This document shows, one piece after another, positions 10,048 through 26,492 of a DNA stretch of 64,000 nt (its first letter is position 1; every line of letters begins with the position of its first letter). The DNA lies in assembly GCA_964554375.1 (NCBI GenBank), contig CAZKOL010000001.1:24597-88596 (forward strand), in the 5' to 3' direction. The stretch is from an uncultured Dehalococcoidales bacterium (GTDB taxonomy: Bacteria; Chloroflexota; Dehalococcoidia; GIF9; UBA5629). The notes below the pieces were generated by a model. It was not told the origin of the DNA and ran no database searches. It saw only the letters and a program-made list of their open reading frames with translations. The position numbers and the translations under genes are program-made.

Positions 10048-10057
10048 AACAAATCTG

Positions 10058-10495
10058 ATGCATATATATACTATAGGTTTTACCAAAAGAACGGCAGCGA
10101 ATTTCTTCGAAACGCTTAAGAAAAGCGGCGCAAAGCATTTATTGGATATCCGCCTCAACAACACCTCACAGCTGGCAGCGTTCACCAAAAAGCAAGACCT
10201 CCCTTATTTTCTGAAGAGCTTGGCCGGCATTGAGTACCATGAGATGCCGGAGCTTGCTCCCAGCGATCCAATACTGAAAGAGTATCGCCGCAGTAAAAAC
10301 TGGAAAACCTATGAGGATGCATACAATAAGCTACTTGGGAAAAGAAAGGCTGAGAAATCTGTGTCCAAAGTATGGCTAAAAGAGGGCGCTGTAATGCTAT
10401 GCAGTGAGCACGACGCTACCAAATGCCACCGCCGCCTGGCTGCCGAATACATAGCTAATAAAAACACCGGTAAAATAACAGTCACGCACTTATAA
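10058..10495 (+). CDS. DUF488 family protein (copy 2, diverged paralogue)
   Basis: MHIYTIGFTKR...HLLDIRLNNTS and C-terminal CSEHDATKCHRRL parallel copy 1; 145 aa; 10-bp spacer after copy 1. Confidence 0.7.
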   Translation: MHIYTIGFTKRTAANFFETLKKSGAKHLLDIRLNNTSQLAAFTKKQDLPYFLKSLAGIEYHEMPELAPSDPILKEYRRSKNWKTYEDAYNKLLGKRKAEKSVSKVWLKEGAVMLCSEHDATKCHRRLAAEYIANKNTGKITVTHL

Positions 10496-10501
10496 AAGAA
10501 T

Positions 10502-11245
10502 TTGCGCCAGAAGATTGTGATCACTGACCTGACACAGATGCCGCAAGGCAATAAGGTATGCGTGATCGGCATCAATGAGCAGGGCAGGACGATAAGGCCG
10601 ATACACGATAATGGTTTCCTGAAAAATTATCTATACAACAGGTCTCAACTAATAATCTTTCCGCGTGCCATTATAGAGTTCGATTTTATCGGAGAAAAGC
10701 CTCAACCACCACACATAGAAGATATGGACTTTGATCCAACATTCATTAAATATCATGGACTAAGCGATGACACCAAGTGGGAGAGTACGTTGTTAATCAC
10801 CTCTTTCAATACCGTAAACAAAATATATGAAGGTAATCTCAAATATGGAAAATGGGTACCGCCTGGTGCTAAAACAAGATCAATAGCCACACTATCCGGT
10901 TCAACCGAACACTCATTTATCATTGAAGAAGGACGAGCACCTAAAACGCGTATCCGGTTTCTGGACGCATCTGGAAATGAATACAACCTGCCGGTGAGCG
11001 ATCTGGCAATCCGGGAATTATGTTTTAGCGAAGTAATAAGAAAAGGGAAAGCTGTAGCTGATGTTGCCGGTGAATTGAATAGGGCCATCGCACAGATTCG
11101 GAAGATTTACTTGAGGGTTGGTCTAGCCCGCGCATATAAAGTGGAGGGTGCCGAAACAGAACATTGCTATCCTCAGATAACAGGCATCCATACTATACCG
11201 GATTACTTGAACGGCAAAACCTTTGCTGATTTTGCCAAGCGCTAG
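10502..11245 (+). CDS. hypothetical protein, no recognisable domain; start codon uncertain (TTG 10502, GTG 10517 or ATG 10538)
   Basis: 247-aa ORF, AT-rich codon usage like the adjacent DUF488 genes; 6 bp after DUF488 copy 2. Confidence 0.5.
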   Translation: MRQKIVITDLTQMPQGNKVCVIGINEQGRTIRPIHDNGFLKNYLYNRSQLIIFPRAIIEFDFIGEKPQPPHIEDMDFDPTFIKYHGLSDDTKWESTLLITSFNTVNKIYEGNLKYGKWVPPGAKTRSIATLSGSTEHSFIIEEGRAPKTRIRFLDASGNEYNLPVSDLAIRELCFSEVIRKGKAVADVAGELNRAIAQIRKIYLRVGLARAYKVEGAETEHCYPQITGIHTIPDYLNGKTFADFAKR

Positions 11246-11478
11246 TGAGCGCAGATGATCTACCCCAATATACTTACAGTTTATTCAGGCGTAATGATTC
11301 TATTTCTCATCTTAACCAGGGCATAAACAATTTCAGGCATTTGTCCCAGACCGCATCGCTATAATTATATGGCGGCCTATGAACTTGACGCCATCCCTGC
11401 CAGCGGCATCCTTAACGGCACGTGAAGCGTCATGCGGCGTTTTGAAGTTGCTGTGTAATGCAATTCGTCCACCCTAAA

Positions 11479-12009
11479 TTAATTGCCGGTTTCGATACCT
11501 TGTTTCGCTATAGATGCTAAAAGAGCCGTGAGACCCCCCTGCATGACAACCGGAAAATATTTCCGCACCTCCATCTGAAACTGCACATTTATCTGTTCTG
11601 AAATCTGCCTGTCGTCGTATAAATGCAATCGGGCAAATGGGATATCACCCGTACCGATACCTTCTCTATCACAGACAACCGCAAACCATTGCATCTGGGG
11701 ACCGATCCTAAGTGCAAGGAAATATCCGGCATACCCGTCTACCGCGCGCTGGCGCAAACAAGAAAAATCCTTTTGCTGAACGATTATGCCCTTCCCTGTC
11801 GTTATCTTTAATTCAAACGAATAACAGCCGCCTCTGCTATCAATTGCGTCTATGTCCGCGTCTTCCGATATATGATTACGTATACTGTTCCATTTCAACT
11901 CATGTAACGCCAACACCATAATGCACTGGCAAATTTTACCTAACTGCGTAGTGCCATATTTGTCATTCAATTGCAGCAGCAATTGTTCACAGTCGTTTTC
12001 AAACGTCAT
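11479..12009 (-). CDS. hypothetical protein, third gene of the SMC-like ATPase operon (possible PD-(D/E)xK-like nuclease)
   Basis: 176-aa ORF starting 2 bp after the ATPase stop; motif D57...E66-L-K68 (AIDSRGGCYSFELK) compatible with a restriction-endonuclease-fold catalytic core; inference only. Confidence 0.45.
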   Translation of the reverse strand: MTFENDCEQLLLQLNDKYGTTQLGKICQCIMVLALHELKWNSIRNHISEDADIDAIDSRGGCYSFELKITTGKGIIVQQKDFSCLRQRAVDGYAGYFLALRIGPQMQWFAVVCDREGIGTGDIPFARLHLYDDRQISEQINVQFQMEVRKYFPVVMQGGLTALLASIAKQGIETGN

Positions 12010-12010
12010 C

Positions 12011-14131
12011 TCAGTTTATATCGGGGCCATTGGACGGATCCCAGCCACTGAATTCAATTACTTTCATGCTCATAGTCAAATTGTCCTTTAACATGACCAG
12101 AAGTTCCGAATCCATCGTGCTGACGATTACCTGACGCGTCTTGGCCGCGTCAGAAATAAGTTCCGCTATCCTTTCCTTATGATGCTTTGCCATACTTTGG
12201 GAAGGATCATCAAAGATAATAGCATTAAACGGTAAATCCTTTGTATTAGATGCACCGATACCGTAAAAAATGGACAAAGCCAGTGCATTAAGATCGCCCT
12301 GGCTCAGAATGGGAATAACATCATCACCAGAACTGTCGCGAAATAGAAAGTTTTCGTTACCACGTGATTGTTCCAGGCACATCTCCAAATCGACTATACC
12401 CGGGTTCTCCGCTATTCTGTCGAAACATTTTTTGATGGATTCTTTGGAGCTATTCACCCTCGATGCTCCTTCTTCATCCCGAATAGCCTTTACAGCCTTT
12501 AAAATTGCTTCTATATCGAGGATCTTCCACTCGGCATATTCGCGTAGAGTGGACAGCTGCTTGTAATTCGAATCATCCTTAACATTTGACAGGCGCTTGA
12601 TGTGTTCCTTGTTTTCCAAAATCCTGCAATAATCAATGATGGCATCGGAGTCGTCCTCTATTGCCCGGATTCTCGGTTCGAGGGACTTTAATGCATCCTC
12701 GAGTTGAAGCTTGGCTTCTTTTGCTGGCTTTATTTTGCCCGCGATGACTATCGCGAGATCCTCCCCCTTTTGCAAACTTATCTTAAGATCCTTCGCTACG
12801 CGGTCGCAGTTTTCAGCATATGACGTTCTCAGGGATGCTTCCGGTACGGTAAGGGTTAAGATCTTGTTTAATAAACCCGTAGCGCTTTCTATTTCTTTGG
12901 TTTTTCCATCCACACATTGGGATAAGGTCATGACTTCTGAGTCAGTCAACTGCTTCAATTTGTTGGCCAGATAAGAAATCTGATCCTGAGTGTCGCTTCC
13001 ACAGGCAGGGCATTGCGCGGCGCCCGTACCAGTCCCACTGTCTCTCATATATCGGTAGAGCGGATCTATAGCGGCATAAAGAGCGTTTATCCTGGCCAGA
13101 CTGGCTTCTATTTGCTTTTTTTCTTCAGTTAAACCGCTGATTTTGCCCTTAATTGATACTTCGTCACCATTTTGTGCTATGAACTCCGACATTTTTTTTC
13201 CGGCCACATCCAAATCCAGCTTCAATTTATTAATTACAGCCAATTTCCCTTCATAATTAACAATCTCTTCAGCTATCGCCTGATTACGAATGCTTGTAGG
13301 CGAGTGAATGAAATATTCACGCGCCAGTCGTTTAATCTGCATTACTCTTTCGTAAATATCTTTATGCCCTTGGATTTTTTCCGCGCTACCTGTGTCCCCG
13401 GTTCCACCCGTCGACTCAGTTAGCTTCTTTTGAAGTGACATGGCTTTCTGTTGCGCATTTTCGATTGAGACAAGGTTTACATTGAGTGCAAGTTTCTTGG
13501 CAATTTCTTCGTTCTGGCTGTTATAGCTTAATATACGGTCCTGAATCCGTTTGTTGATGCCATCTATAGATAGCTGCACCTTACTGGACCATTTATCATA
13601 TTTGCTGGCGGCAATAGTGCTCATCAACGAGTTGTACTCACCCAAACCCAACATCCTGTTGATTATTTCACGTTTATCTCGGGGTTCGGCAAGAGCCAGA
13701 TGCCGTATATTCTCCTGGTGTTGATAGACCATGGCCATAAAATCCATGAACTGACCGACTTGCTCATTTACCCACATATTGGCCGCGTCGCTCTTAATAA
13801 CTTTTTGGCTCATAGTTACGGTCAGTCCGTTATTACCTAATTTCGGGGTGCGCTCAAATATTATCGTATCTTGATCATTGTGACATGTCAGAATAACCCG
13901 GCAGGCGTGTGTCCTTGTGCGATTTTGCGGCTTCCAGTCTTTCCTTTCACGAATGCCGGTAGAGAGCCCGACGCATTTATCGCCAAACAGGCACCATTCA
14001 ACGGCATTTAGCGTGCTGCTTTTACCCTGGGCATTATTGCCGTACAACACGGTCACAGGACTGGTGAAATCAATTGTCTTCCCGCTTGTAAACGCGCGAA
14101 AACCCTGGATAGTAATTTTATCAATCCTCAT
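12011..14131 (-). CDS. Rad50/SbcC-like SMC-family ABC ATPase with central CxxC zinc-hook
   Basis: N-terminal Walker A GNNAQGKSST in an AAA_23-like head, long coiled-coil middle, CPACGS at aa 374-378 (apex), C-terminal signature LSQGDLNALALS and Walker B AIIFDDPSQS; 706 aa. Confidence 0.75.
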   Translation of the reverse strand: MRIDKITIQGFRAFTSGKTIDFTSPVTVLYGNNAQGKSSTLNAVEWCLFGDKCVGLSTGIRERKDWKPQNRTRTHACRVILTCHNDQDTIIFERTPKLGNNGLTVTMSQKVIKSDAANMWVNEQVGQFMDFMAMVYQHQENIRHLALAEPRDKREIINRMLGLGEYNSLMSTIAASKYDKWSSKVQLSIDGINKRIQDRILSYNSQNEEIAKKLALNVNLVSIENAQQKAMSLQKKLTESTGGTGDTGSAEKIQGHKDIYERVMQIKRLAREYFIHSPTSIRNQAIAEEIVNYEGKLAVINKLKLDLDVAGKKMSEFIAQNGDEVSIKGKISGLTEEKKQIEASLARINALYAAIDPLYRYMRDSGTGTGAAQCPACGSDTQDQISYLANKLKQLTDSEVMTLSQCVDGKTKEIESATGLLNKILTLTVPEASLRTSYAENCDRVAKDLKISLQKGEDLAIVIAGKIKPAKEAKLQLEDALKSLEPRIRAIEDDSDAIIDYCRILENKEHIKRLSNVKDDSNYKQLSTLREYAEWKILDIEAILKAVKAIRDEEGASRVNSSKESIKKCFDRIAENPGIVDLEMCLEQSRGNENFLFRDSSGDDVIPILSQGDLNALALSIFYGIGASNTKDLPFNAIIFDDPSQSMAKHHKERIAELISDAAKTRQVIVSTMDSELLVMLKDNLTMSMKVIEFSGWDPSNGPDIN

Positions 14132-14370
14132 AGGTCTCCTTCTTCCCGGTTCGACTCTGAATCTATCTCTTGACAGCCGTCTAATGCCCCACTTTCCAGC
14201 TCCTCCGCTGTGCCCTGAATGCTACCACCCATTTCATTTAAAAAGGCCTTCACAGAATCCTCTCCCCCCTGATCCAACTTGTCACATATCAGTTGAAACA
14301 TCTTTAGCCTTTCTTCTGACCGGGATGTACTGAAACTCACAATTTTCTGCTTGATCTTTTCCAGTTCCAT
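14128..14370 (-). CDS. small acidic protein, first gene of the SMC-like ATPase operon
   Basis: 80-aa ORF, strong RBS gaggagg, stop overlaps ATPase start (ATGA); Glu/Asp-rich. Confidence 0.5.
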   Translation of the reverse strand: MELEKIKQKIVSFSTSRSEERLKMFQLICDKLDQGGEDSVKAFLNEMGGSIQGTAEELESGALDGCQEIDSESNREEGDL

Positions 14371-14839
14371 TTAGCCTCCTCATGTGATGATTGCAGAGCG
14401 TCAAACCTTATTTATCGTTAAGAATAAGTTGCATATCCAGAATGACTACAATTGTTCAGGTAAATGCCGGTAAGCAGTACGGGTGAATATCTTTCCCCTG
14501 TCCCCCACACAGCCTGTCTCATACCAATTCCTCGGATGGCCAAATGCCGGCCAGTATGCCATTACACTACCTCCCGGATCATCATTTCGACATCTGCCCT
14601 ATATTACAACATCGTCCGTCTGCAATCAATATTGAACAGCTTATACGTACACAATAAGTCTACGACTATTGACAATAAAATGTTAATATGTCCAATCAGT
14701 AATGATTGAGTCGATTTATTCATAGGGAGTCACAGCTCCTTATACGTGGGATTTTTATGTATAAATGACTTAATAGCGGAATGTGATACTAATATATTAT
14801 TTGTGTCATAATATGCAGTATGCTCATGGAGGTGCAGAA

Positions 14840-15121
14840 ATGATAGTTAAGAATAAGTACAAATTAACGATAAAGGAAGCCCTTATTCTTTTCTTGAAAA
14901 ATCAGCCTAGCATGCAGGCTCGCTTATCTGAAATATACTTAGGTGTAAATGGTATCTTAAAAAGGGATGTGGCACCATCCGTTATTAGAGGTGTCATATA
15001 TATGGAAATGAAAAGATCTCAAGATCGCAAAGCTACAATAATCACACGTGTTGCCCCGGGTATTTATCGCTTAGCTAGTGGGGGAGCTAGCCAAGCCCGC
15101 CGTAATGTCCACAAAGGTTAA
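14840..15121 (+). CDS. small winged-helix protein (Mrr_N-like DNA-binding domain), putative regulator
   Basis: 93-aa product (MIVKNKYKLTIKEALILFLKN...GIYRLASGG) resembles the restriction-system Mrr N-terminal wHTH; RBS ggaggtg; sits between two defence modules. Confidence 0.4.
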   Translation: MIVKNKYKLTIKEALILFLKNQPSMQARLSEIYLGVNGILKRDVAPSVIRGVIYMEMKRSQDRKATIITRVAPGIYRLASGGASQARRNVHKG

Positions 15122-15330
15122 CACGCAAGACGAAGTTCTTGTAATAAGATGTTCTAGTGTCCCGATGCCCAATTTCGTATTATTGAAATCCTACAGGTTG
15201 AATATTAAGGTATTACAGCGTAGGATATTGCCTGTAGTGATCTTCAGTTGTGCTGATTGTTCTTAATGTGAGACTGAAAAAACTGGGAGTATAGTAAATT
15301 GCTGAAGGAAAAATATTAGAGCCGAAAACA

Positions 15331-18300
15331 ATGTCATCTGATCTCACTTTTCTAACCAACGAACCAGAAAATACCCTGCTTGACCGTTTCTTAGTGTTAC
15401 TCAAGAAAGACTCGCGGTTTTTCGATTGTCTTGTAGGCTATTTTTTTATTAGTGGCTTCTATAAGCTTTATCCAGCTCTGGAGAATGTCGAAAAGATTCG
15501 TATTCTAATTGGTCTTCAGACCGACCGTGCCGCGTATGATCTTATACAAAGGGCTAACCAGCAGTATACTTTGCCTCTTGAATCCCATGCCACTGTGATC
15601 GAACACATTCCTTGTAATGTACTTGGTGAGTTAGAGAAGTCCGCCGATAGTTCAGACGTTGAAGCTGGCGTTCATAAGTTCGTCGAGTGGATTCGTTCGG
15701 GGAAATTGGAAATCAAAGCCTACCCTGGCGAAATACTCCATGCGAAGGTCTACATCATGACCTTTGCGGAAGGTGACCGTGATAAAGGGCGGGTAATCAC
15801 GGGGTCAAGCAACTTTACTCAATCAGGGCTACAGTTAAATCTTGAGTTCAATGTCGAGTTGAAAAACAGTGCTGATTATGATTTTGCCATTAATAAATTT
15901 AATGAGCTTTGGGCTGTCGCCGTGGATGTCTCCATGCCTTACGAAGACACCATCATTAATCGTTCGCCGTTCGCTCATTTTACGCCATATGAGCTTTATC
16001 TTAAATTCTTGTATGAGTATTTTAGAGACGAACTAAACCGGCCCGCTGAGCTTGAAGATATCTATGTACCTGACGAATTCAAACGCCTTAAATATCAAGA
16101 GGAAGCAGTTATCAGTGCCCGTAAAGTGCTTGAGGAATATGGTGGTGTGTTTTTAGCGGACGTCGTTGGTCTCGGCAAGACCTATATGGCTGCCTTGCTT
16201 GCCCAGCAGCTCGAGGGGCGCTCATTAGTTATAGCACCCCCTCATTTGTTGGATAAGCAGAATCGTGGCTCCTGGCCCAACGTCTTCGGTGATTTCCGTG
16301 TTCCCCATACTGACTTTGAATCTATTGGAATGCTGGAAAGCCTGTTAACACGCGATATATCAAAGTATTCCAATGTTTTCATCGACGAGTCACATCGTTT
16401 CCGTACTGAAACGAATCAAACCTATGAGATGCTTGCGCAAATTTGCCGCGGCAAGCGGGTTATCCTGGTTTCGGCAACACCTCTTAACAATACCCCACGG
16501 GATATACTCAGCCAGGTCAAGCTATTTCAGAACGGCAAGAATAGCACCATCCCTAATGTCCGCAATCTTGAAGCCTTTTTCTCGCAGCTTGAAAAAAACC
16601 TTAATAACCTTGATCGTCGGACCGACCGTGAACAATATTTCTCTGTAGTCCAGGCCAACGCCAAATTAACACGAGAGAATATTTTGAAGTACTTAATGAT
16701 CAGGCGAACACGCAATGAAATCATGAAATATTACGGGGATGACCTGAAAGCCCAGGGCTTTAAATTCCCCGATGTCGCCGATCCGCAGCCTCTATTCTAT
16801 AAGCTCAACAAAACTGAAAATGAAATATTTAACGAAATGGTACGTCTGATAACGCAGGCGTTTGTTTACGCTCGCTATAAGCCATTAACCTATTATGAGG
16901 GAAAGCGAGAACAACGTGATATACAAAGCCAGCGCAACCTGGCCAAATTTATGAAGATTCTCTTAATTAAACGGTTGGAGAGCAGCTTCCATGCCTTCCG
17001 TTTAACTCTCGATCGCTTTATCCACTCCTATGATCGCTTTATTGAGGAATATGATAATGGATATGTGTATATCAGCAAAAAGCATATAGGTAAAATACTG
17101 GAACTTCTGGAAACGGATGACCAAGAAGCCGTTGACCGGTTGCTTGAATCGGATAAGGCCGAGCGTTTAAATGCGAAGGACTTTAATGCGGAGTTTATCA
17201 ATGACCTCAAGGCTGACCGAAAGGTCCTGCAGGAAATTGACACCCTTTGGAAGCGGATCAAGCGGGATCCCAAATGGGAGGCTTTTCGTGCCGTTCTGAC
17301 TACTGATTCCACGCTAAAGAAAGGCAAAGTTATCATCTTTACTGAATCAAAAGAGACTGCCGAATATCTTTCTCAGAAGATTGCCGCTGAAGTTGATAAA
17401 AAGGTGCTTTTATATACCGGCCATTCTGACGAGTCTGTTCGTAAAACCGTTATATCTAATTTTGATGCCCGCGCTTTTCAGCCCCAGGACGAATATCGGA
17501 TTCTGGTCGCTACAGAAGTACTTTCCGAAGGTGTCAACCTTCACCGGTCAAACATTGTAGTTAACTACGATATACCATGGAATCCCACCCGTCTCATCCA
17601 GCGTGTCGGGCGGGTAAACCGGGTTGATACAACATTCCCCATCATCCACACTTACAATTTTTTCCCAACTGAAGAGAGTAATGATCTGATTAAACTAAAA
17701 GAAGCGGCTGAAGCCAAAATCCATGCTTTCATCGAAATGCTCGGCGCCGATGCCCGTCTGCTTACTGAAGGCGAAGAGATCAAATCGCATGATTTGTTTG
17801 CCAAGTTGATTTCTAAGAAAACGATAACGGGTGAGGATGAAGAGGAACAGAGCGAACTGGAATATCTCACTGAAATTCGTGGGGTTCGTGATAATCAACC
17901 CGACATGTTCTTACGCATTAAGAGATTACCCCGGAAGGCCCGTTCGACCAGGCTTTCATCGGTGCAGGATAATGCTGAAGTGAAACAATATCCTTCCCTG
18001 ATAACCTATTTTCGCCAGGGCAGGCTTGATAAATTTTTCCTTGCCGGTATTGGCCCTGCTGATCCCATAGAGCTCGATTTCTTTAACACAGTATGTATTC
18101 TTAAGCCTGCCGACACTGAAGAAAAACTACAAGCAATACCGCATGATTTTTATACCCTATTAAATAGAAATAAACACGCCTTCGAAACAGCCACCAGCAC
18201 GGACATGGGTGATACCATCTCCCCGCAAAAGGGTGTGGCGAATGATGTTTATATACTAAAGCGCCTTAAGGCGAAGGAAATCCGTCACTATCATGGTTTC

Positions 18301-18549
18301 ACCGAGGATGATGAGCTGTACATTCGACAGGTAATCCAGCTCCTGACAGATGGGGCGCTCCCCAGGCCTACGACCAAAAAGGTAGCCGACGCTCTAAAAA
18401 AAGAAATGGAACCTCTTAAAGTTTTGGGGATTTTAAGGCGTGACATCCCATATCAGTTCTTCCAGGCAACCCGAGCGCAACAGACTGCTCAAGCATTCAA
18501 GCCTCGTGAAGTAATTCTTTCATCTTATCTATTGGAGGAAGGATCATGA
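15331..18549 (+). CDS. PLD-family nuclease fused to SNF2/SF2 helicase (putative restriction subunit)
   Basis: N-terminal PLD motif LHAKVYIM...GSSNFT; helicase motifs GLGKT (I), DESH (II), QRVGRVNR (VI); ~270-aa uncharacterised C-terminal region; 1072 aa. Confidence 0.8.
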   Translation: MSSDLTFLTNEPENTLLDRFLVLLKKDSRFFDCLVGYFFISGFYKLYPALENVEKIRILIGLQTDRAAYDLIQRANQQYTLPLESHATVIEHIPCNVLGELEKSADSSDVEAGVHKFVEWIRSGKLEIKAYPGEILHAKVYIMTFAEGDRDKGRVITGSSNFTQSGLQLNLEFNVELKNSADYDFAINKFNELWAVAVDVSMPYEDTIINRSPFAHFTPYELYLKFLYEYFRDELNRPAELEDIYVPDEFKRLKYQEEAVISARKVLEEYGGVFLADVVGLGKTYMAALLAQQLEGRSLVIAPPHLLDKQNRGSWPNVFGDFRVPHTDFESIGMLESLLTRDISKYSNVFIDESHRFRTETNQTYEMLAQICRGKRVILVSATPLNNTPRDILSQVKLFQNGKNSTIPNVRNLEAFFSQLEKNLNNLDRRTDREQYFSVVQANAKLTRENILKYLMIRRTRNEIMKYYGDDLKAQGFKFPDVADPQPLFYKLNKTENEIFNEMVRLITQAFVYARYKPLTYYEGKREQRDIQSQRNLAKFMKILLIKRLESSFHAFRLTLDRFIHSYDRFIEEYDNGYVYISKKHIGKILELLETDDQEAVDRLLESDKAERLNAKDFNAEFINDLKADRKVLQEIDTLWKRIKRDPKWEAFRAVLTTDSTLKKGKVIIFTESKETAEYLSQKIAAEVDKKVLLYTGHSDESVRKTVISNFDARAFQPQDEYRILVATEVLSEGVNLHRSNIVVNYDIPWNPTRLIQRVGRVNRVDTTFPIIHTYNFFPTEESNDLIKLKEAAEAKIHAFIEMLGADARLLTEGEEIKSHDLFAKLISKKTITGEDEEEQSELEYLTEIRGVRDNQPDMFLRIKRLPRKARSTRLSSVQDNAEVKQYPSLITYFRQGRLDKFFLAGIGPADPIELDFFNTVCILKPADTEEKLQAIPHDFYTLLNRNKHAFETATSTDMGDTISPQKGVANDVYILKRLKAKEIRHYHGFTEDDELYIRQVIQLLTDGALPRPTTKKVADALKKEMEPLKVLGILRRDIPYQFFQATRAQQTAQAFKPREVILSSYLLEEGS

Positions 18550-21500
18550 ATCGTGATCAGGCTTACACCCAGGTTAAGCAGACCTTCACTCACGGCTTTG
18601 ATGCAGAGCAGTTCCGTAATTTTGTGATCAATCTATTGAATCATGTTGATATATCCAAGGCGCAGTCGTGGAATAGTCAATATGTTAAGGGCGCTTTTAA
18701 GGAACATGTTCAACGGTATGAGCGTCTTGGTACATATACCTCGCCAAGTGGTGAGAAACTGGATTTGCTTGTTGTTTATTTGACGAGTGCTACGAAGCTT
18801 GAACGTGCCCGCACAGCCATTCGTAACTTCGTCGCCGATCACCTCAAGACACGGGATGAAAAAGATGCCGCTCTGGTTGCTTTTGTATCCCCGCTGGAAA
18901 AGCAGTGGCGGTTTTCCTATGTCAAAATGGAATACGCTACCTTTGTAAAGGAATCTGGCAAGGTGGGCGTGGAAACACGGCTCACTCCGGCCCGCCGCTT
19001 CTCATATATCGTGGGAGAAGGCGAAAGCTGTCATACGGCTCAAACCCGGTTTTTCAGTTTGCTTCAGGACACGAAAACCGACCCTACACTTGCGGTCATT
19101 GAGGAAGCATTTAGTGTCGAGGCGGTCACCGCAGAATTCTTTAAGTGCTATGTGGAGCTTTTCGAGGGTATTCATTATGCGCTGGAACAGCGCATCCAAA
19201 AGGACAAGTCTATCCGTGATGAATTTCAGGAAAAAAATATCAATGCTGTGGACTTTTCTAAAAAGCTCATGGGGCAGGTTGTGTTTCTCTATTTTCTTCA
19301 AAAAAAAGGGTGGCTTGGTGTTGAAAACGGGCATGCCTGGGGCACTGGCCCGCGCGATTTCCTTCGCCGCCTCGCTAAAGGCGAATATGGTAAGTACTCA
19401 AACTTTTTCAATGATGTACTTGAACCGCTTTTCTATGACACCCTTGCTACTGACCGTGGCCATGATGCATGGTGTGATCACTTTAAGTGTCGCATCCCTT
19501 TTCTTAATGGCGGTTTGTTTGAACCGCTCTCTGGTTATAATTGGCGTACTACAAATATTCTCCTTCCGAATCACCTGTTTCTTAATGACAAATTCGTAGA
19601 GGAGGGCATTACAGGTACGGGCGTACTCGATGTATTTGACCGCTATAACTTTACTGTCAATGAAGCTGAACCGTTGGAAAAGGAAGTTGCAATTGACCCG
19701 GAGATGTTGGGTAAAGTCTTTGAGAATCTGATTGAAGAAAACCGGCGCAAAGGCTTGGGGTCATATTATACACCGCGCGAAATAGTGCATTATATGTGCC
19801 AGGAGAGCCTCATCAATTACCTTGATACTGTATTGAATACAGAAAGCCAATTGGTTCCCAGAGATGATATTGAAAACTTTATTTACTTAGGCGAGCAAAT
19901 CTCGCATTACGAGTCCGTGGATACCAAGTATCCTATTAAGATGCCCGCTACTATTGAGTCAAATGCTCGCTTGATTGATGCCAACCTGGCTGAGATTACA
20001 GTATGCGACCCTGCCGTTGGGTCCGGTGCGTTCCCTGTAGGGATGATGGCCGAGATCGTTCACGGTCGCTGCGCACTCACTCCCTATTTCAACGCCGTCC
20101 AGGAGCGCACCCCTTACCATTTCAAGAGACATGCAATACAAAATTGTCTTTATGGCGTGGATATCGACCCCGGCGCTGTCGAGATCGCCAAGCTGCGTCT
20201 TTGGCTTTCACTTGTCGTCGACGAGGAAGATGTTAAGCAAATAAAACCGTTACCGAACTTGGACTATAAAATTGTCACAGGAAACTCTATTCTTGGTTTC
20301 CCATTCAAATCGCAAAGGGTGACTGCTATAGAGAGCTTAAAGCAGCAATTCTTTGATGAGTATGATCAAGAAAAAAAAGCAGCGCTAAAATCTCAAATAG
20401 ATGAGCAATTGCGCGCGGCCTTTGTGGCTTCTAAAAAGACTCTTGGATACGATGTGAGCTTCGATTTCGAGATATTTTTTTCAGAAGTATTTTATAAGGG
20501 TGGGTTTGATATAGTTATCGCCAATCCACCATATGTAAGCTACGGGCTGCGTGGAGCACAGAAGATGTCACAACAAGAGAAAGATCTCCTTAAGCAGCTC
20601 TTCCCTGATTCTGCTGAATATAAGATCAGTCTATACGCGATCTTTATGGATAAGGCAATTCAATTAGCCAAGGTGGGCGGAGTACAAACGTTAATTGTTC
20701 CAGATAGCTTTCTTATGGGCAGGTTCTTTTCAAAAATAAGAAGCCTAATCCTTCGCAAGAACAAAATGATTGAGTTATTGGTTTTACCTTATGGAGTATT
20801 TGATACTACTGTGGGCTTCTCAATCGTGTATCTTTTTCAACGAAGTGACTCTGTGAATGCATCCTGCAAAGTCGTAACAAGATATATAGATTCAAAAGAC
20901 AAGGTGATGAATAAGACCCTAAGAACCTTCTCGTACCCACAAGATTACTTTAAGACTATTCGTTACAATCGGTTCAGGTTATTTTTTGATGAAACGACAA
21001 TGAATTTGATATCTAAAATTTCATCTGGAACAACACCACTCGGAGATATAATAGACTTTAATAGCGGTTTGATTGCTAAAGGCGGCAAGGATTCTATTGT
21101 TGCTACAGAAAAATTAAATAAATATTGGTTACCTGGACTATCATCCGGTGGTGAAATCAGGCGATTCGTATTAAAACCGAAAGGCTACTATATTCTATAT
21201 CAGAAAGATAAGATACATAGCGGGTATGATTGCGTAGATTATTTTACTGACAAATTATTTATGCGGCAGACAGGGGATTCTCTCATATGTGCAATTGATG
21301 ATATTCACTTGCTTTGCTTGAATAATGTTCATGTTGGAAATCTAAAAGACGACGATTATTCCTTAAAATATATTGCTGCCCTAATTAATAGTAAATTATT
21401 GAATTACTATTATAGGTCGCTTGCTTTAGAAAGTGGCAGAGCTATGGCTCAAACTGATATCGAAACCATAGAGGAACTGCCAATAAAAAAGATGTCAAGA

Positions 21501-21689
21501 ACCTATGAAATTCAAATCATTGAATTAGTTGACAATATCCTCGCCATTACTAAGGATGAGGATTACTTGGTTAACTCGACCAAACAAGATAGAGTCAACG
21601 GGCTTGAATTCCAGATTGACCAAATGATTTATGAAATTTATGATTTGACGCATAAAGAAATAACCAGCGTGAAGGGCAAAGCGTTTTGA
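18546..21689 (+). CDS. Eco57I/TaqI-like N6-adenine DNA methyltransferase with C-terminal target-recognition region
   Basis: LGSYYTPREIVHYM, AdoMet motif DPAVGSGAF, catalytic NPPY (VIANPPYVSY); ATGA start/stop overlap with the upstream helicase; 1047 aa. Confidence 0.8.
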   Translation: MNRDQAYTQVKQTFTHGFDAEQFRNFVINLLNHVDISKAQSWNSQYVKGAFKEHVQRYERLGTYTSPSGEKLDLLVVYLTSATKLERARTAIRNFVADHLKTRDEKDAALVAFVSPLEKQWRFSYVKMEYATFVKESGKVGVETRLTPARRFSYIVGEGESCHTAQTRFFSLLQDTKTDPTLAVIEEAFSVEAVTAEFFKCYVELFEGIHYALEQRIQKDKSIRDEFQEKNINAVDFSKKLMGQVVFLYFLQKKGWLGVENGHAWGTGPRDFLRRLAKGEYGKYSNFFNDVLEPLFYDTLATDRGHDAWCDHFKCRIPFLNGGLFEPLSGYNWRTTNILLPNHLFLNDKFVEEGITGTGVLDVFDRYNFTVNEAEPLEKEVAIDPEMLGKVFENLIEENRRKGLGSYYTPREIVHYMCQESLINYLDTVLNTESQLVPRDDIENFIYLGEQISHYESVDTKYPIKMPATIESNARLIDANLAEITVCDPAVGSGAFPVGMMAEIVHGRCALTPYFNAVQERTPYHFKRHAIQNCLYGVDIDPGAVEIAKLRLWLSLVVDEEDVKQIKPLPNLDYKIVTGNSILGFPFKSQRVTAIESLKQQFFDEYDQEKKAALKSQIDEQLRAAFVASKKTLGYDVSFDFEIFFSEVFYKGGFDIVIANPPYVSYGLRGAQKMSQQEKDLLKQLFPDSAEYKISLYAIFMDKAIQLAKVGGVQTLIVPDSFLMGRFFSKIRSLILRKNKMIELLVLPYGVFDTTVGFSIVYLFQRSDSVNASCKVVTRYIDSKDKVMNKTLRTFSYPQDYFKTIRYNRFRLFFDETTMNLISKISSGTTPLGDIIDFNSGLIAKGGKDSIVATEKLNKYWLPGLSSGGEIRRFVLKPKGYYILYQKDKIHSGYDCVDYFTDKLFMRQTGDSLICAIDDIHLLCLNNVHVGNLKDDDYSLKYIAALINSKLLNYYYRSLALESGRAMAQTDIETIEELPIKKMSRTYEIQIIELVDNILAITKDEDYLVNSTKQDRVNGLEFQIDQMIYEIYDLTHKEITSVKGKAF

Positions 21690-21877
21690 GCATGTTGTGT
21701 CCTTCTTTCGACGAAACGCCGGAGACTTTGTTTATAGGATTGGGATTCTCGCCACTTGACACTCGATTTCCTTTAGTGTCTGAAATATTTGATTTTGCTA
21801 TGTAACTTTGGGGCCTGTGGCACATAGGCAAACTGATTCTGGTGGGCACAATTGGCGAGTAACTGTTAATAATAGAG

Positions 21878-22405
21878 ATGTCTGACTTCACGTTTGAATT
21901 GGCTGGAGAGCAATTTAGAAGAGCCTATCTTCTTTACATTATAGAAATTCGTCATAGCAAAGATAGGTATTTCTACATCGGGCAAACCGGCGACAACCAT
22001 TATGTAACTGCTCGTCCTGCATTCCGGCGGTTATTCGGGCACCTGGAAGATAGTGGAGGAAGTACCCAGAATCAAATATACAAATATATTGCTACTAAGA
22101 TCCTCAGTTATAGCAAGTCTAATACCAGAGAAAAGTACAGTAATGAGTGTAAGCAGGCTGTTGAAGATTTCCTGGTAGGTTCTATTGTGCGCATGCACGT
22201 TTACAACGTGCTGCCTTTTAATCCTGCCATTAGCCGCCTTGACCATCTTGCAAACGTTAAAAAAGTTACTCTATTAGAAAAATATGTTATTAAAGCTTTT
22301 GCTGATTCAGGCAAGTCTCTTATTAACAAAGCCGTAAGGGCGCCGATTGGACCATGTCCGTATCCGCGACAACTCGCCCGAATTAAGGGTGAGTTCGATC
22401 TCTAA
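21878..22405 (+). CDS. GIY-YIG domain protein (putative nuclease)
   Basis: YLLYIIEI...YFYIGQTGD...RRLFGH fits GIY-x(10)-YIG-x(n)-R..H; 175 aa. Confidence 0.5.
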   Translation: MSDFTFELAGEQFRRAYLLYIIEIRHSKDRYFYIGQTGDNHYVTARPAFRRLFGHLEDSGGSTQNQIYKYIATKILSYSKSNTREKYSNECKQAVEDFLVGSIVRMHVYNVLPFNPAISRLDHLANVKKVTLLEKYVIKAFADSGKSLINKAVRAPIGPCPYPRQLARIKGEFDL

Positions 22406-22482
22406 AAACATCATTTATTAACCATTTCTTTCGGCTGATTCATGCCGGATACTGTACGTAACCGGTACATCATGCCAACCTA

Positions 22483-23250
22483 TCAACCGTATTTCGCGCT
22501 GAATGAATCCACTACATCCAACAGCCGCGCATCCAGCAAAGCTCTGACTTTCTTTATGATGTGGTCATCGATAGTTTTATAGTACGCCTGCGCTATCCCC
22601 CCGGTTATACAGGCCTGTGTATCGGTATCCCCACCCAAGGAAATGGCTTTACGGACGGCGTCTTCATAAGTGCTCGACTCCAGGAAGGCGATAATCGCCT
22701 GCGGCACGGATCCCTGGCAGGTTGGATCAAATCTGTAGCCGGGGCGGATTTCAGCCAGCGTTGCACTGAGGTCGTAATCAAAAGTAGTCTCGATGTAATC
22801 CTTTATTTCCTTTTTACCTTTACCTGTTCTTGCAAGAAAGATGGCTGCCGCTGTGGCCTGGGCGCCCTTGATGCCCTCCGGGTGGTTGTGGGTGACTTCT
22901 GCGCTTTTCTTCGCCTCTTCGAGGACTTTATCCAGAGTATCGAATGCAAAGCCGACCGGGCTGACCCTCATGGCTGAGCCGTTGCCGAAGCTGTTATAAG
23001 GTCGACTATTATTATTCCTCAGCCACTGCCTGAACATGCCGCCGTAACCGGCGTGGGGGAACAGGCGGCCCCACTCCTTGTACGCCGCCGCATATCCTTT
23101 ACCCGTCAGGATGCTGTCCGCTGTTGCAACGGTCATGACGGTGTCATCGGTGAACCTGCACCCCGGGCTGAACAGCGGGAAGTCCTCCGTTTTAACCGGG
23201 TGGGCTTCATAGACAGACCCGATGATGTCACCGGCGATGACTCCGATCAT
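22483..23250 (-). CDS. ADP-ribosylglycohydrolase family protein (ARH/DraG-like)
   Basis: N-terminal GDIIGS, C-terminal GGDTDTQACITGGIAQA metal-binding motif; 255 aa. Confidence 0.8.
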   Translation of the reverse strand: MIGVIAGDIIGSVYEAHPVKTEDFPLFSPGCRFTDDTVMTVATADSILTGKGYAAAYKEWGRLFPHAGYGGMFRQWLRNNNSRPYNSFGNGSAMRVSPVGFAFDTLDKVLEEAKKSAEVTHNHPEGIKGAQATAAAIFLARTGKGKKEIKDYIETTFDYDLSATLAEIRPGYRFDPTCQGSVPQAIIAFLESSTYEDAVRKAISLGGDTDTQACITGGIAQAYYKTIDDHIIKKVRALLDARLLDVVDSFSAKYG

Positions 23251-23391
23251 TTATTACGGATTCCCAAATAACATTTTTGACTGTTACTTCAATCTAACCG
23301 CTATAAAAATGGGGGCGGAGTTCGTTCTCAGGTATATAACGAAAATGAGTCGAAAATTGCGATTACTTCGTTTCCTGACAAACGCCTGAGG

Positions 23392-23643
23392 TTAGGCGAC
23401 ACCAGTCGGCTCCAACTCCAGGGTCACCAGAAGCGACGGATTGGGTACCAGGCCGAAATCAGCGGGATCTTCCCCTTCAAGGTGAAGCGCTACCGCCTCT
23501 TTTAGATTGGCAATAGTCTCATCCAATGTTTTCCCCTGCGTGACTACTGCTATCTCGTGACATTCAGCCACATAATAATCATCACCTTTATAAACGAAAG
23601 CCTTTATCGAGCTATGCATTGCTTTACTCCCGGTCCTTTCCAA
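23392..23643 (-). CDS. HicB-family (UPF0150) antitoxin-like protein
   Basis: FVYKGDDYYVAECHEIAVVTQGKTLDETIANLKEAVALHLE matches HicB/UPF0150 fold signature. Confidence 0.6.
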   Translation of the reverse strand: MERTGSKAMHSSIKAFVYKGDDYYVAECHEIAVVTQGKTLDETIANLKEAVALHLEGEDPADFGLVPNPSLLVTLELEPTGVA

Positions 23644-23700
23644 TCTATCTCAAAATGATACACCTATATTCCTCAATTGTAATCAATCTTCGCTGATTAC

Positions 23701-24027
23701 TCAATTAAGTATCTGATGATTTTCCACCTTCACCGGAGGTTTCCCCCGCATGAGACGTTCGGCGGCCTTTCTCATCCTCGGCTGTATCCGGATAACACCT
23801 GGCACTGAGGACGCCGATTGTAATTTGTCCCCGCACAAGCTCACCATGTCCTCGATGGCCAGCTCCTGCAGCGTACCCCGGACCATGCCGTAAGCCTCAT
23901 TCACATCGTCACCCATTTTGAAGCCGTCCACCACCGCCTCAAAAAGGTCCATTATCTCTATCTCATCTTTGCCACAGCTCGCCAGGTAGTTGATCACCTT
24001 TGCACCGGTTTCGATATTCTTTTTCAT
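23701..24027 (-). CDS. hypothetical protein upstream of HicB-like gene (non-HicA partner)
   Basis: 108-aa ORF; lacks the GSH motif of HicA. Confidence 0.4.
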   Translation of the reverse strand: MKKNIETGAKVINYLASCGKDEIEIMDLFEAVVDGFKMGDDVNEAYGMVRGTLQELAIEDMVSLCGDKLQSASSVPGVIRIQPRMRKAAERLMRGKPPVKVENHQILN

Positions 24028-24063
24028 GGATTTCTTTGCTCCTCCTTTTTATCCTCCGCAATA

Positions 24064-24675
24064 TCACGGGGCCAGCAATACCTTTACAGCGGAAACAACG
24101 GCCAATGCCGCGATCAAGACCACGGCCAGCACCAGCACGGCTGCGCCCAGTGTGCATAATGTGGCCGTGATGCAGAAACCGGCGCTGACCTTTGCCGCTG
24201 TCCACCCTTTTCCCATCCTGCTCAGCCCGCGCGTTTTTACCGCGGCGAAACAGGCAATGGCCAGGATCAGGGCGCCTGTGATTGTGAACCACAGGTTGAA
24301 CGGCATTAACATGAGACCTACCCCCAGGGGAATGCTGCAGAAAAGGGCCACCCGCTGCCAGGTCAAGGACGGCCAGGGCAGTATGCCGGGCTTATTTGCG
24401 GGGCGCGGCGGCGGGGGCGCCGTGCGGGTACGGCTCTGGCTGCTTCCACCGCTCCTCTGCCGGCAGTAAAGGTCGTACCACGTCTTTCTCTGCGGATCGG
24501 ACAGCACCTCGTAGGCTTCGTTGATCTCCTTCATGCGCTGCGCCGATCCGCCGGTATCAGGGTGGTACTTCCGCGCAAGCGCCGTGTAGGCAGCCCTGAC
24601 CACCTCAGTCTCCGCGCCGGGATTTACGCCCAGGATGCCGTAATAGTTTTTCCAGTTAAGCTCGTATTGCTCCAT
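24064..24675 (-). CDS. J-domain (DnaJ-like) membrane protein
   Basis: J-domain YYGILGV...YHPD; Pro-rich linker; two C-terminal TM helices. Confidence 0.75.
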   Translation of the reverse strand: MEQYELNWKNYYGILGVNPGAETEVVRAAYTALARKYHPDTGGSAQRMKEINEAYEVLSDPQRKTWYDLYCRQRSGGSSQSRTRTAPPPPRPANKPGILPWPSLTWQRVALFCSIPLGVGLMLMPFNLWFTITGALILAIACFAAVKTRGLSRMGKGWTAAKVSAGFCITATLCTLGAAVLVLAVVLIAALAVVSAVKVLLAP

Positions 24676-24941: not shown

Positions 24942-26282
24942 TTATTTATAGTAGATATCTTCTTTCTTGAAACCGATGGGCCCGTTGTTCCTGCGGCTGA
25001 TCCTGCGCAGGACGGCGTCCACCTCCTCCCTGGTGAACCTGTAGCCCTTCCTGATGTCGTACAGGCTCCTGCTCTGTATCACCAGCCCGTAGATCACCTC
25101 CTGCACCTGCGCCGGCGTGTAGCCCTCCGTCATGCAGACCACGTGCTCCTGCACCGCCGGGTCGAGCGGTATCCTGCGGCACAGGTTGCGCACGATCTCC
25201 CGGCGCAGCTCCCTGCCGGGCGGACGCATGGTGATGACGCGGTCGAAACGCGAGGGACGCTGGCTGAGGGCGTCGTCCAGGGCCTCGGCGTAATTGGTGG
25301 TGGCGATGGTCACGACCTCGCTGCACTCCCTGACACCATCCAGGATGTCCAGCAGCTCGTTGAGGGCGTCCCCGCGGGCGCCCGGGCCGCCCCTGCTCTC
25401 CCCGATCAGGTCGATGTCCTCCAGGAAGACGATGGCGGGCCTGAGGTCGCCGGCTATGTCGTAGAGCTCCCTGATGTAGCGGGCGTGCACCAGCAGCGCC
25501 GGGTCGGCCGCCAGGCAGGTGACTCCGGGACTGTTGCTCATCAGAACTTTGGAGATGAGCGTCTTGCCTGTGCCCGGCTTCCCCGCCAGTATCAACCCCC
25601 GCTTGCGCGGTATGCCGTATTTTGCCAGCTCCTTGCTCCGTTTAAGGAAGCCCACCGTGTTGGCCACCAGCTCCTCCTTGATCTCGGGCTGCAGCGACAG
25701 GTCGTCCCAGGTCTTTGCGCCGGGCTGAAGGAACTCCAGGCCGCCGTTGTACTTTATCTTCTGACCCTTATAGAGCTGGAGTTTCTTTACAGTTCTGTCG
25801 ATGTCGGCGGCGAAGCGTTTTACCTCGTTTTTGATGCCAGCCGGCCCTTCGACGGCTATCCAGGCGCGTTCACCGTGGCGGCTGAACTTGACTCGCACCT
25901 CCAGCCGGCTGCCGGCGCGGCTCAGCAGCAGTCGTCCCTGGGTCAGCACGTTGACCCGCCTGCCCGGACCCGCCTCGATCTCGTTGTAATCGGGCTTCGA
26001 GTCTTTGTACAGGCCCAGCGCCCGCACGACCTTCCACTTTTCGCTTTTCAGGTAATCCTTGAGCGCCAGAGCCAGCAGGTTCTCGTAATAATGCTCCACC
26101 ACAACCGGCAACTCGGTTTTCTTGCCTCCACCCAGAAAGCCCTCGCCCATGTACGCCTGTTTTGCCCGCTGTTCGGCTATCTTAGACAGCGACGTGTTTT
26201 TCGGGGCGTCAACCTCGTCATCCTCGTCGTCTTCATCGCCGACGCACTCGATCATGTCGTACATTAGTCCGGGGTCCATTTT
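24942..26282 (-). CDS. AAA+ ATPase (classic AAA/CDC48 clade) with acidic N-terminus
   Basis: Walker A GKPGTGKT, Walker B IVFLEDID, second region of homology; start set at MDPGLMY with RBS agaaaagaggt; the longer ORF to 26510 lacks an RBS. Confidence 0.75.
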   Translation of the reverse strand, partial: KMDPGLMYDMIECVGDEDDEDDEVDAPKNTSLSKIAEQRAKQAYMGEGFLGGGKKTELPVVVEHYYENLLALALKDYLKSEKWKVVRALGLYKDSKPDYNEIEAGPGRRVNVLTQGRLLLSRAGSRLEVRVKFSRHGERAWIAVEGPAGIKNEVKRFAADIDRTVKKLQLYKGQKIKYNGGLEFLQPGAKTWDDLSLQPEIKEELVANTVGFLKRSKELAKYGIPRKRGLILAGKPGTGKTLISKVLMSNSPGVTCLAADPALLVHARYIRELYDIAGDLRPAIVFLEDIDLIGESRGGPGARGDALNELLDILDGVRECSEVVTIATTNYAEALDDALSQRPSRFDRVITMRPPGRELRREIVRNLCRRIPLDPAVQEHVVCMTEGYTPAQVQEVIYGLVIQSRSLYDIRKGYRFTREEVDAVLRRISRRNNGPIGFKKEDIYYK

Positions 26283-26428
26283 CACGTTTCTTACCTCTTT
26301 TCTAAGACTGCCATGATACTTTATAACGGGGCCGGGACAGCTATCTGTCACTCCGCCGGGGGACGGGTCAAGCGGGACTTTTTTATATGCCGATGATACG
26401 ATTAATTGTTGGAATATATAACAATCTC

Positions 26429-26458
26429 TTGACATGTTTTCATACCAAACAATATAAT
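26429..26458 (+). promoter_or_regulatory. sigma70-like promoter for the XRE-Panacea antitoxin operon
   Basis: TTGACA (26429-26434) - 18 nt - TATAAT (26453-26458), ~35 nt upstream of ATG 26493. Confidence 0.5.
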
Positions 26459-26492
26459 ATATTGTGTATAAAATGCAGATTTGGAGAATGTC

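Follow-up and report, generated by a model that had tools for sequence, protein, structure and literature searches.

A recurrent two-gene locus encoding a PLD-SNF2 helicase-nuclease and a gamma-class adenine methyltransferase is most likely a minimal restriction-modification module

MANTIS MtsD and SauUSI are dimeric restriction motors in which a nuclease of the phospholipase D (PLD, or HKD) type is driven by a superfamily 2 (SF2) ATPase (10.64898/2026.09.23.753747; PMC7913695), and MtsD, seen at 2.2 Å, is a dimer with one composite PLD site (10.64898/2026.09.23.753747). Dyads of an SNF2 helicase and a PglX-like methylase are core to DISARM class 1, ARMADA and Type-3 BREX, and the dyad recurs in the DUF499-centred BR/Hma/MANTIS systems, the effector of Type-2 BR/MANTIS being an HKD-Snf2 fusion (PMC12458937; PMC12839542). 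The sole mention we found of pairs similar to the one considered here is in a table of Milman et al., which lists Cj0031-like Type II restriction-modification (R-M) coding sequences (CDSs) with an adjacent PLD plus SNF helicase CDS (PMC9881135). Here we describe such a pair from an uncultured Dehalococcoidales bacterium, in a 64,000-nt stretch of DNA (GenBank assembly GCA_964554375.1, contig CAZKOL010000001.1, positions 24,597 to 88,596 of the forward strand), which we call the window and to which all positions refer unless a locus is named; amino acid (aa) numbers refer to the helicase (gene 1) or the methylase (gene 2) protein. We propose that the pair is most likely a minimal two-gene R-M module driven by a PLD-SNF2 protein, widespread and routinely labelled Type IIG.

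Gene 1 (15331..18549) encodes a PLD(HKD)-SNF2 helicase-nuclease of 1072 aa and gene 2 (18546..21689) a gamma-class N6-adenine DNA methyltransferase of 1047 aa with a C-terminal target-recognition domain (TRD), both starting with ATG on the + strand and identified from open reading frames (ORFs), Pfam and PADLOC. The two are coupled through a junction at 18534..18549 (+ strand), where a GGAGGA Shine-Dalgarno sequence inside gene 1 (18534-18539) is followed by an ATGA start/stop overlap (18546-18549); read letter by letter, the junction has the sequence ...GGAGGAAGGATCATGAATCG, the methylase ATG at 18546-18548 overlapping the helicase TGA at 18547-18549, and in GGAGGAAGGATCATGA the ribosome-binding site stands six bases upstream of the ATG. 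The initial annotation had placed the two frames exactly so, and the motifs it quoted (HAK, GSSNFT, GLGKT, DESH, QRVGRVNR and NPPY) were all recovered. A promoter and terminator scan gave counts that did not differ from those of shuffled sequence and was left unused.

That the two genes belong together is seen from their distribution. Full-length helicase homologues of 74-84% identity make up a very large set of metagenome proteins, and identities of 72-85% are found across Pseudomonadota, Verrucomicrobiota, Acidobacteriota, Chloroflexota and others; such extreme sequence conservation across phyla indicates frequent horizontal transfer. A helicase-seeded genome scan, in which each species was represented by a single genome, gave 80 loci, which belong to Pseudomonadota, Verrucomicrobiota, Syntrophaceae, Planctomycetota, Chloroflexota, Chlorobiaceae and Acidobacteriota, and also to Nitrospirota, Elusimicrobia, Peregrinibacteria, Ignavibacteria, Cloacimonadota and to one metagenome-assembled genome of Nanoarchaeia. 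Helicase and methylase are adjacent in ~60 genome loci spread over more than 10 phyla. When the six copies of the window's own island are included, making a set of 86 helicase loci, a methylase homologue is present in 77, where it starts either close to the helicase end, a few bases off at most, or beyond a short gap, and the identical 4-bp overlap occurs in ~35 of the ~60 loci in which both genes were called. The linkage holds in the reverse direction as well: of 80 metagenome loci seeded with methylase aa 1-590, 59 had at least 1.5 kb of upstream sequence, and in 57 of these the helicase lies upstream on the same strand. All-against-all clustering of the ORFs of at least 100 aa in the 80 helicase-seeded genome loci yielded no third recurrent gene, the helicase family being present in 74 loci, the methylase family in 67 and the next real families in 6 each. 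Nor do the ORFs flanking the pair in the window (those of 112 aa and 175 aa, the ADP-ribosylglycohydrolase, the Lamassu-like genes and DuOB) have homologues in the related loci. Given this near-obligate pairing without any recurrent third gene or neighbour, we conclude that the conserved unit consists of two genes, which bears out the earlier suggestion of a coupled PLD-SNF2 and gamma-class methyltransferase module resembling an R-M system.

Beyond these loci, a blastn search of E. coli in distant mode found no match to the pair, and sequenced phages gave three weak matches, to the helicase only, the pair being essentially absent from them. Plasmids hold homologues of less than 36% identity only, yet these also stand beside N6 methylases. 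A Parabacteroides distasonis plasmid (locus L088, 8001-14664) carries the helicase followed by a 1133-aa methylase that aligns to aa 68-1042 of the window methylase, and Thermus oshimai pTHEOS02 (locus L087, 4578-11363) carries the methylase, a 412-aa hypothetical protein and then the helicase, the PLD-SNF2 proteins of both being 30-33% identical to the window helicase; the two arrangements imply that the dyad exists in several gene orders and splits. Among the pairs that do not overlap, the genes are separated by 0.35-1.9 kb holding unrelated cargo, for example, within loci L019-L085, at 11237-12778 of L021, 4210-4910 of L031, 4552-5284 of L039 and 11404-12567 of L041. By sequence appearance, this cargo includes HigBA-, VapBC- and MazF-like toxin-antitoxin genes, AlbA_2/ATPase-like proteins of ~480-510 aa, a DUF1016/YhcG-like nuclease, four-helix-bundle proteins and DUF3800-like pairs. 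Type I R-M operons also carry such embedded cargo.

The nuclease and motor domains of the gene 1 product are present with intact motifs. Its Pfam matches, all above the gathering cut-offs (GA), are PLDc_2 at aa 55-194 (40.5 bits against a GA of 27), ResIII at 253-384, SNF2-rel_dom at 315-467 and Helicase_C at 650-765, and in PADLOC it is matched best by a bare profile, C3a139 'HKD+Snf2' (169.5 bits, aa 14-799). The PLD-like nuclease domain (15493..15912) has the HxK...GSxN signature of the Nuc/BfiI type of the PLD superfamily, with HAK at aa 137-139 (H137/K139, 15739-15747) and GSSNFT at aa 158-163 (GSSN, 15802-15813). The SNF2-type SF2 ATPase core (aa 253-765, 16087..17625) has the Walker A motif GLGKT at aa 280-284 (16168-16182), DESH at aa 352-355 (16384-16395) and motif VI, QRVGRVNR, at aa 757-764 (17599-17622), all on the + strand. 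In an alignment of 64 helicase homologues reaching down to 48% identity, the three ATPase motifs are invariant, and H137, K139 and G158-S-S-N161 are at least 97% conserved; H137 is the PLD histidine on whose conservation the initial annotation had staked its reading. HxK occurs just once in the chain. With one HKD motif each, two chains would have to come together as a dimer for an active site to form, as we expect by analogy with Nuc, BfiI, SauUSI and MtsD.

Conservation of the helicase extends over its full length and includes the unassigned C-terminal region (aa 800-1072, 17728..18546, + strand), where identity is 0.52-0.84 per 50-aa block. This region had earlier been suggested to act as a reader of DNA modification, an idea for which we find no support: it is conserved within the family rather than variable, aa 790-1072 match no SRA, EVE or other reader family of Pfam even at E<=5, and a profile search of the PDB matched nothing in the helicase beyond the C-lobe. 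Modelled alone with AlphaFold2 (AF2), aa 790-1072 come out as mostly helices at a pLDDT (the predicted score of the local distance difference test) of 49.3, from a shallow alignment of 51 sequences of 70-79% identity. The tblastn alignments to the distant plasmid PLD-SNF2 homologues end at about aa 820, and the C-terminus is therefore specific to the subfamily.

The gene 2 product matches Eco57I at aa 533-750 (113 bits), TaqI_C at aa 867-980 (66 bits), N6_Mtase (45 bits) and MmeI_Mtase in Pfam. Its methyltransferase catalytic domain (aa 477-790, 19974..20915, + strand) has motif I, DPAVGSGAF, at aa 488-496 (20007-20033) ahead of NPPY at aa 660-663 (20523-20534), an order that makes the enzyme gamma-class, and both motifs are nearly invariant among 53-55 methylase homologues. 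The target-recognition region follows (aa 791-1047, 20916..21686, + strand), with TaqI_C at 21144-21485. Conservation is uneven along the chain: the protein is conserved from aa 1 to ~590, and from ~700 to the end the identity is 0.11-0.23 per block, with NPPY kept. The best conserved stretch of all, at an identity of 0.65-0.87 per block of 50 aa, is aa 236-470 (19251..19955, + strand), which follows the N-terminal domain and precedes the methyltransferase fold; the only match in it is a marginal N6_Mtase N-terminal one (E=0.016).

The N-terminal domain itself (aa 1-235, 18546..19250, + strand) is well modelled by AF2 (pLDDT 85.8) as an alpha/beta domain in which two helices precede a beta-sheet region, itself interrupted by one helix, with further helices after it. 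It has no Pfam match at E<=5, and Foldseek found no match at E<=1e-3 in the PDB (best template-modelling (TM) score ~0.2), a fold library that includes structures of MmeI, DrdV, BsaXI and PglX and, we presume, also that of BpuSI. Against BFVD nothing significant was found; a few PD-(D/E)XK, Cas4 and EEP entries at E ~0.01-0.1 are not evidence. When the methylase family profile was run against all PDB sequences, CamA, M.BseCI, PglX/BrxX, M.TaqI, BsaXI, DrdV and MmeI were matched only from profile position ~650 onward. The residues D73, R89, R93, K106, W121, R122, S124, R151, S153, E160, H163, E186, E192 and E197 are invariant in the domain, as is K127(R); they contain no D...(D/E)xK pattern, the strand with D73 reading D-L-L. 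The domain forms 1276 clusters at 50% identity and always stands at the N-terminus of proteins of ~1000-1300 aa. We regard it as a candidate docking domain for the gene 1 product or, as another candidate role, a cryptic nuclease; the subfamily-specific helicase C-terminus and the likewise subfamily-specific N-terminal half of the methylase would fit as a mutual interface. Since Pfam, fold and PDB-profile comparisons recognise no nuclease in the methylase, the only identifiable nuclease of the pair is the PLD domain of the helicase. PADLOC's match of the methylase is to REase_MTase_IIG, a REBASE-derived profile (PDLC03596, 772 bits, including aa 1-451), and because this polypeptide has no detectable nuclease, the label 'Type IIG' probably misdescribes the system.

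In several homologues the methylase ORF runs on through an in-frame insertion of ~250-320 aa (L041 12668-16789, L044 3659-7945, L078 2312-6256, L084 7250-11380 and L051 8826-12983). It sits at about aa 431-437 or at 523, in the least conserved loop of the methylase N-terminal half, and on either side of it stand short tandem peptide repeats resembling translated repetitive extragenic palindromic (REP) repeats. By its motifs, the insertion (NLPHWTREG...AVIMPNHVHLLLEP...ESYDHIVRS) looks to us like a REP-associated tyrosine transposase (RAYT / IS200 Y1) domain, and one insertion-bearing methylase homologue, P0136, matches Pfam Y1_Tnp. The insertion may be either a domesticated domain or a mobile element whose presence in frame is tolerated.

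The conserved and the variable parts of the pair also evolve differently with respect to each other. Over 1128 pairs of loci, the pairwise identity of the helicase correlates with that of methylase aa 1-590 at r=0.85 and with that of the TRD at r=0.14, the mean pairwise TRD identity being 0.25; where two helicases are at least 75% identical, 75% of such pairs have TRDs less than 30% identical. These figures, together with the TaqI_C match, agree with the earlier statement that the methylase carries a target-recognition region of its own. That motor and methylase core co-vary while the TRD is free marks a conserved chassis whose specificity can be exchanged, of the sort known from Type I, Type ISP, BREX and MANTIS. 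Programmed inversion or shufflon-type rearrangement of the TRD has been described for similar loci (PMC9881135); we found neither long inverted repeats nor spare TRD copies at 14300-24500 of the window.

Our favoured interpretation, to which we assign a probability of roughly 0.6, is that the pair constitutes a self-contained, split, two-subunit ATP-dependent R-M system, in which a dimeric PLD-SNF2 cutter is directed by the methylase. The gene 2 product would then be the modification and specificity subunit, and the gene 1 product would be the restriction subunit, joining the motor, an SNF2-type double-stranded DNA (dsDNA) translocase, to a metal-independent nuclease of the PLD type. Through its hypervariable TaqI-type TRD the methylase would recognise a short DNA sequence that is probably asymmetric, and its gamma-class domain with the NPPY motif would place N6-methyladenine (m6A) on the host's sites, probably on one strand only. 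At an unmethylated site, aa 1-590 of the methylase might recruit or license the motor, ATP hydrolysis would then drive the complex along the DNA, and the PLD site would cut, most likely after collision or site-to-site communication, as in Type ISP, Type III and MANTIS. We infer the physical interaction, the hemimethylation, the translocation, the mode and geometry of cleavage and the anti-phage activity by analogy with SauUSI (PMC7913695), MANTIS MtsD (10.64898/2026.09.23.753747), Type ISP and Type III.

Several considerations weigh against this proposal. The contact between helicase and methylase is predicted from co-inheritance only, and the correlation behind the chassis argument rests on statistically non-independent sequence pairs, though the contrast between the two coefficients is large. 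No experimental work, name or methylation motif for any member was found in the literature, with most subscription journals and REBASE outside the scope of our search. In related multi-gene systems the methylase depends for its loading on a further ATPase, which in MANTIS is MtsA (10.64898/2026.09.23.753747), or, in DISARM and ARMADA, a YprA helicase is needed, so that a two-gene version might be insufficient or might use unlinked factors. Cleavage by MtsD has not been reconstituted in vitro, and nuclease action of this class of effectors is partly inferred (10.64898/2026.09.23.753747). Lastly, the invariant D73, E160 and H163 and the few sub-threshold PD-(D/E)XK/Cas4 matches make a cryptic nuclease in the methylase N-terminal domain conceivable. 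We can take the favoured interpretation one step further only tentatively, with the odds slightly against us: the window's pair may be the first representative of a large class of split ATP-dependent R-M systems that spans phyla, has so far no name and is misfiled as single-chain Type IIG, and in which an N-terminal domain of novel fold in the methylase-TRD subunit recruits and licenses a dimeric PLD-SNF2 motor nuclease without the AAA+ loader or YprA helicase of MANTIS, DISARM and ARMADA.

Among the other interpretations, we consider it unlikely, but worth keeping in mind, that the pair works by BREX- or DISARM-like exclusion, in which self is marked by methylation and foreign DNA is blocked via unlinked factors or without classical double-strand cleavage. 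The closest named relatives of the two proteins (DrmD/DrmMI, PglX, BrxHII and the MtsD-type PLD_Helicase) do belong to multi-gene systems; MANTIS needs MtsA and MtsB to load its methylase, with a nuclease step that has not been reconstituted (10.64898/2026.09.23.753747), and the mechanism of BREX is still unclear (PMC12839542). Yet no DUF499, DUF3780, PglZ, BrxC, DrmA or DUF1998 gene was found near the pair in the window, and none is recurrent in ~140 related loci, and the invariant PLD catalytic residues argue for a nuclease that is used. Unlikely too, and second among the alternatives in our ranking, is an authentic Type IIG enzyme aided by a second protein, whose methylase would cut near its site by means of a divergent nuclease in aa 1-235 while the PLD-SNF2 protein serves as an accessory that enhances or extends restriction. 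The 772-bit PDLC03596 match extending over aa 1-451, the alpha/beta fold with invariant D73, K106, K127(R), E160 and H163, the weak sub-threshold PD-(D/E)XK/Cas4 matches in BFVD and the designation of such CDSs by Milman et al. as homologues of the Type IIG enzyme Cj0031 (PMC9881135) all speak for it. However, there is no canonical D...(D/E)xK, the strand of D73 reading D-L-L, the domain finds no Foldseek match at E<=1e-3 in a PDB that holds MmeI, DrdV and BsaXI, and the family profile meets those three and PglX in the methylase/TRD part only; near-obligate coupling to a second, intact nuclease would be hard to explain if the first sufficed.

A function that is not primarily antiviral, either as a selfish addiction module or as an epigenetic or repair device whose methylase sets a methylome and whose remodeller-nuclease acts on host DNA, the pair spreading horizontally to its own benefit, strikes us as improbable. 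It would suit the extreme conservation of the helicase across phyla, hence its frequent horizontal transfer, and the toxin-antitoxin genes often nested between the two genes, but R-M systems are themselves selfish and mobile, so that these features are not exclusive to it, and diversification of the TRD and the defence-island setting are products of arms-race selection; the pair's near absence from sequenced phages also counts against it. The least probable arrangement in our view, and one to which we give hardly any weight, is a modification-dependent Type IV motor nuclease of the SauUSI kind, next to which an independent methylase just happens to lie. Its appeal is the layout of PLD domain, SF2 ATPase and C-terminal extension, which is that of SauUSI (PMC7913695), and the modification-reader role first proposed for that extension. 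The helicase has, however, no SRA, EVE or other reader domain that we could find, its C-terminus is conserved and, at low confidence, helical, and a modification-dependent nuclease that was strictly inherited together with an active methylase, and translationally coupled to it, would turn on the host that carries it.

The setting of the pair in the window is that of a composite defence island (7857-28703) with a low-GC core at ~10000-24000, where the GC fraction is 0.40-0.45 from ~10 kb to 24 kb compared with ~0.58 around it; the pair lies inside this low-GC stretch full of defence-type genes, and the initial annotation had said that such pairings recur in defence islands. On the left side the island has a PIF1-WYL helicase (7857-9398, - strand), two DUF488 genes with a DuOB gene (9535-11245, + strand), of which the DUF488 genes match the PADLOC candidate PDC-M45B/C, and a Lamassu-like LmuB SMC ATPase (12011-14131, - strand) with partners of 176 aa (11479-12009) and 80 aa (14128-14370) that have no family matches. 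Immediately upstream of the pair is a small ORF of 112 aa (14783-15121, + strand; 93 aa in metagenome records), whose product resembles a HARE-HTH-type DNA-binding protein, and downstream is one of 175 aa (21878-22405, + strand); neither has a Pfam or PADLOC match, and neither stands beside the pair in other genomes. Further right follow an ADP-ribosylglycohydrolase (22483-23250, - strand), a DnaJ gene (24064-24675), an AAA gene (24942-26510), an HTH-SocA_Panacea gene (~26493-27260) and a WYL-WCX regulator (27711-28703). No tRNA, sought as a marker of island mobility, was found in the window. Contigs L001-L006, which come from different samples, have the two genes in identical form with differing flanks: L005 and L006 carry other genes to the left of the DUF488 genes, and L002 lacks the HTH-SocA_Panacea gene and runs straight to the WYL-WCX gene. 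The island is therefore reshuffled at the level of strains, while its core stays constant.

It remains to place the pair among the named systems. The effector of MANTIS, also called Gao_RL or Type-2 DUF499-centred BR (MtsA-D), likewise has an N-terminal HKD/PLD domain fused to an SF2/SNF2 ATPase, with one HKD per chain. MANTIS-type profiles do respond to the helicase (NF042964, 149 bits; PADLOC PLD_Helicase, 94 bits), but the NF042964 score is far below its cut-off of 1100, and we therefore consider that the MtsD-like architecture is shared while the helicase is not an orthologue. MANTIS has in addition a DUF499 AAA+ ATPase (MtsA) and a small DUF3780 protein (MtsB), neither of which is present in the window's island or recurrent in related loci, and unlike in MANTIS, the methylase here has a family-specific N-terminal half of 470 aa and the helicase a family-specific C-terminus of 270 aa. 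Class 1 DISARM (DrmA, DrmB, DrmC, DrmD and DrmMI) likewise has a nuclease of the PLD type together with an SNF2 helicase and an N6A methylase, whereas here PLD and SNF2 are fused in one chain. The view that the pair resembles a DISARM core without DrmA and DrmB holds at the level of domains but not as membership: the NCBIfam models score 140.5 bits for DrmD (cut-off 610), 81 for DrmD_b (950) and 19.5 for DrmC_I (133), PADLOC DrmMI reaches 93 bits on the methylase over aa 480-585 only, and neither DrmA (YprA-family helicase) nor DrmB (DUF1998) was found among the ORFs near the pair, among 10 other large window ORFs compared with Pfam, or as a recurrent gene in the helicase-seeded loci. For BREX, no PglZ or BrxC was found near the pair, among the scanned window ORFs or recurrent in related loci, and PglX models score 84 bits on the methylase against cut-offs of 400-900.

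Type ISP enzymes (LlaGI, LlaBIII) have the same set of activities, namely a nuclease, a dsDNA translocase and a gamma-class m6A methylase with a single TRD, and as in Type ISP we would expect asymmetric sites, hemimethylation and cleavage after translocation; a Type ISP enzyme, however, is a single chain, its nuclease being of the Mrr/PD-(D/E)XK kind and its motor HsdR-like, and here there are two polypeptides with a PLD nuclease and an SNF2-type motor. Type III systems (Mod and Res) likewise have two genes, of which the methylase gives the specificity and the helicase-nuclease depends on the methylase. The Type III Mod is a dimeric beta-class enzyme, a PD-(D/E)XK nuclease forms the C-terminal part of Res, and the mod gene comes before res; the pair differs in its gamma-class methylase, its N-terminal PLD domain, a motor matching SNF2-rel_dom as well as ResIII, and the order R then M. 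Type III sites are asymmetric and hemimethylated, and their orientation matters (10.64898/2026.09.23.753747). The initial description of the pair as Type ISP/III-like is thus apt as a functional analogy and not as an assignment to either type. Type IIG/IIL enzymes (Eco57I, MmeI, BpuSI, DrdV, Cj0031) likewise combine methylase and TRD in one large polypeptide that belongs to the Pfam families Eco57I/MmeI_Mtase, and their gamma-class N6A methyltransferase with a single TRD is present in the gene 2 product. They are, though, ATP-independent single chains, whereas the methylase here is near-obligately coupled to an ATPase-nuclease partner, and the linkage to that partner's gene in 57 of 59 loci argues against autonomy of the methylase. 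SauUSI (Type IV) and CglI/NgoAVII (R and H subunits) are likewise PLD nucleases driven by helicase-like ATPases; SauUSI has the same order of PLD, ATPase and extension and is dimeric, but its C-terminal SRA reader was not found in the helicase here.

The pair is thus not a member of DISARM, MANTIS, BREX, Type ISP or Type III and, on the favoured interpretation, not of Type IIG either. It has consequences for annotation: the family is large, and current tools call the methylase Type IIG and ignore the partner that holds the only recognisable nuclease. Two conserved domains without a recognised fold, the methylase N-terminus and the helicase C-terminus, also come to light. The swap-prone TRDs would offer many natural specificities on one conserved chassis. 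Such a module would not astonish a specialist. The larger related systems, however, are hard to dissect, restriction by MANTIS not having been reconstituted in vitro, and a version of two proteins would permit a direct test of the way in which an unmodified site is passed on from the methylase to the PLD motor nuclease. If two genes do suffice, the pair would be the simplest member of the methylation-guarded systems built on an SNF2 protein and a PglX-like methylase, which include DISARM, ARMADA, Type-3 BREX, Hma/BR and MANTIS, and a tractable model for the PLD motor nucleases of the BREX-related systems.

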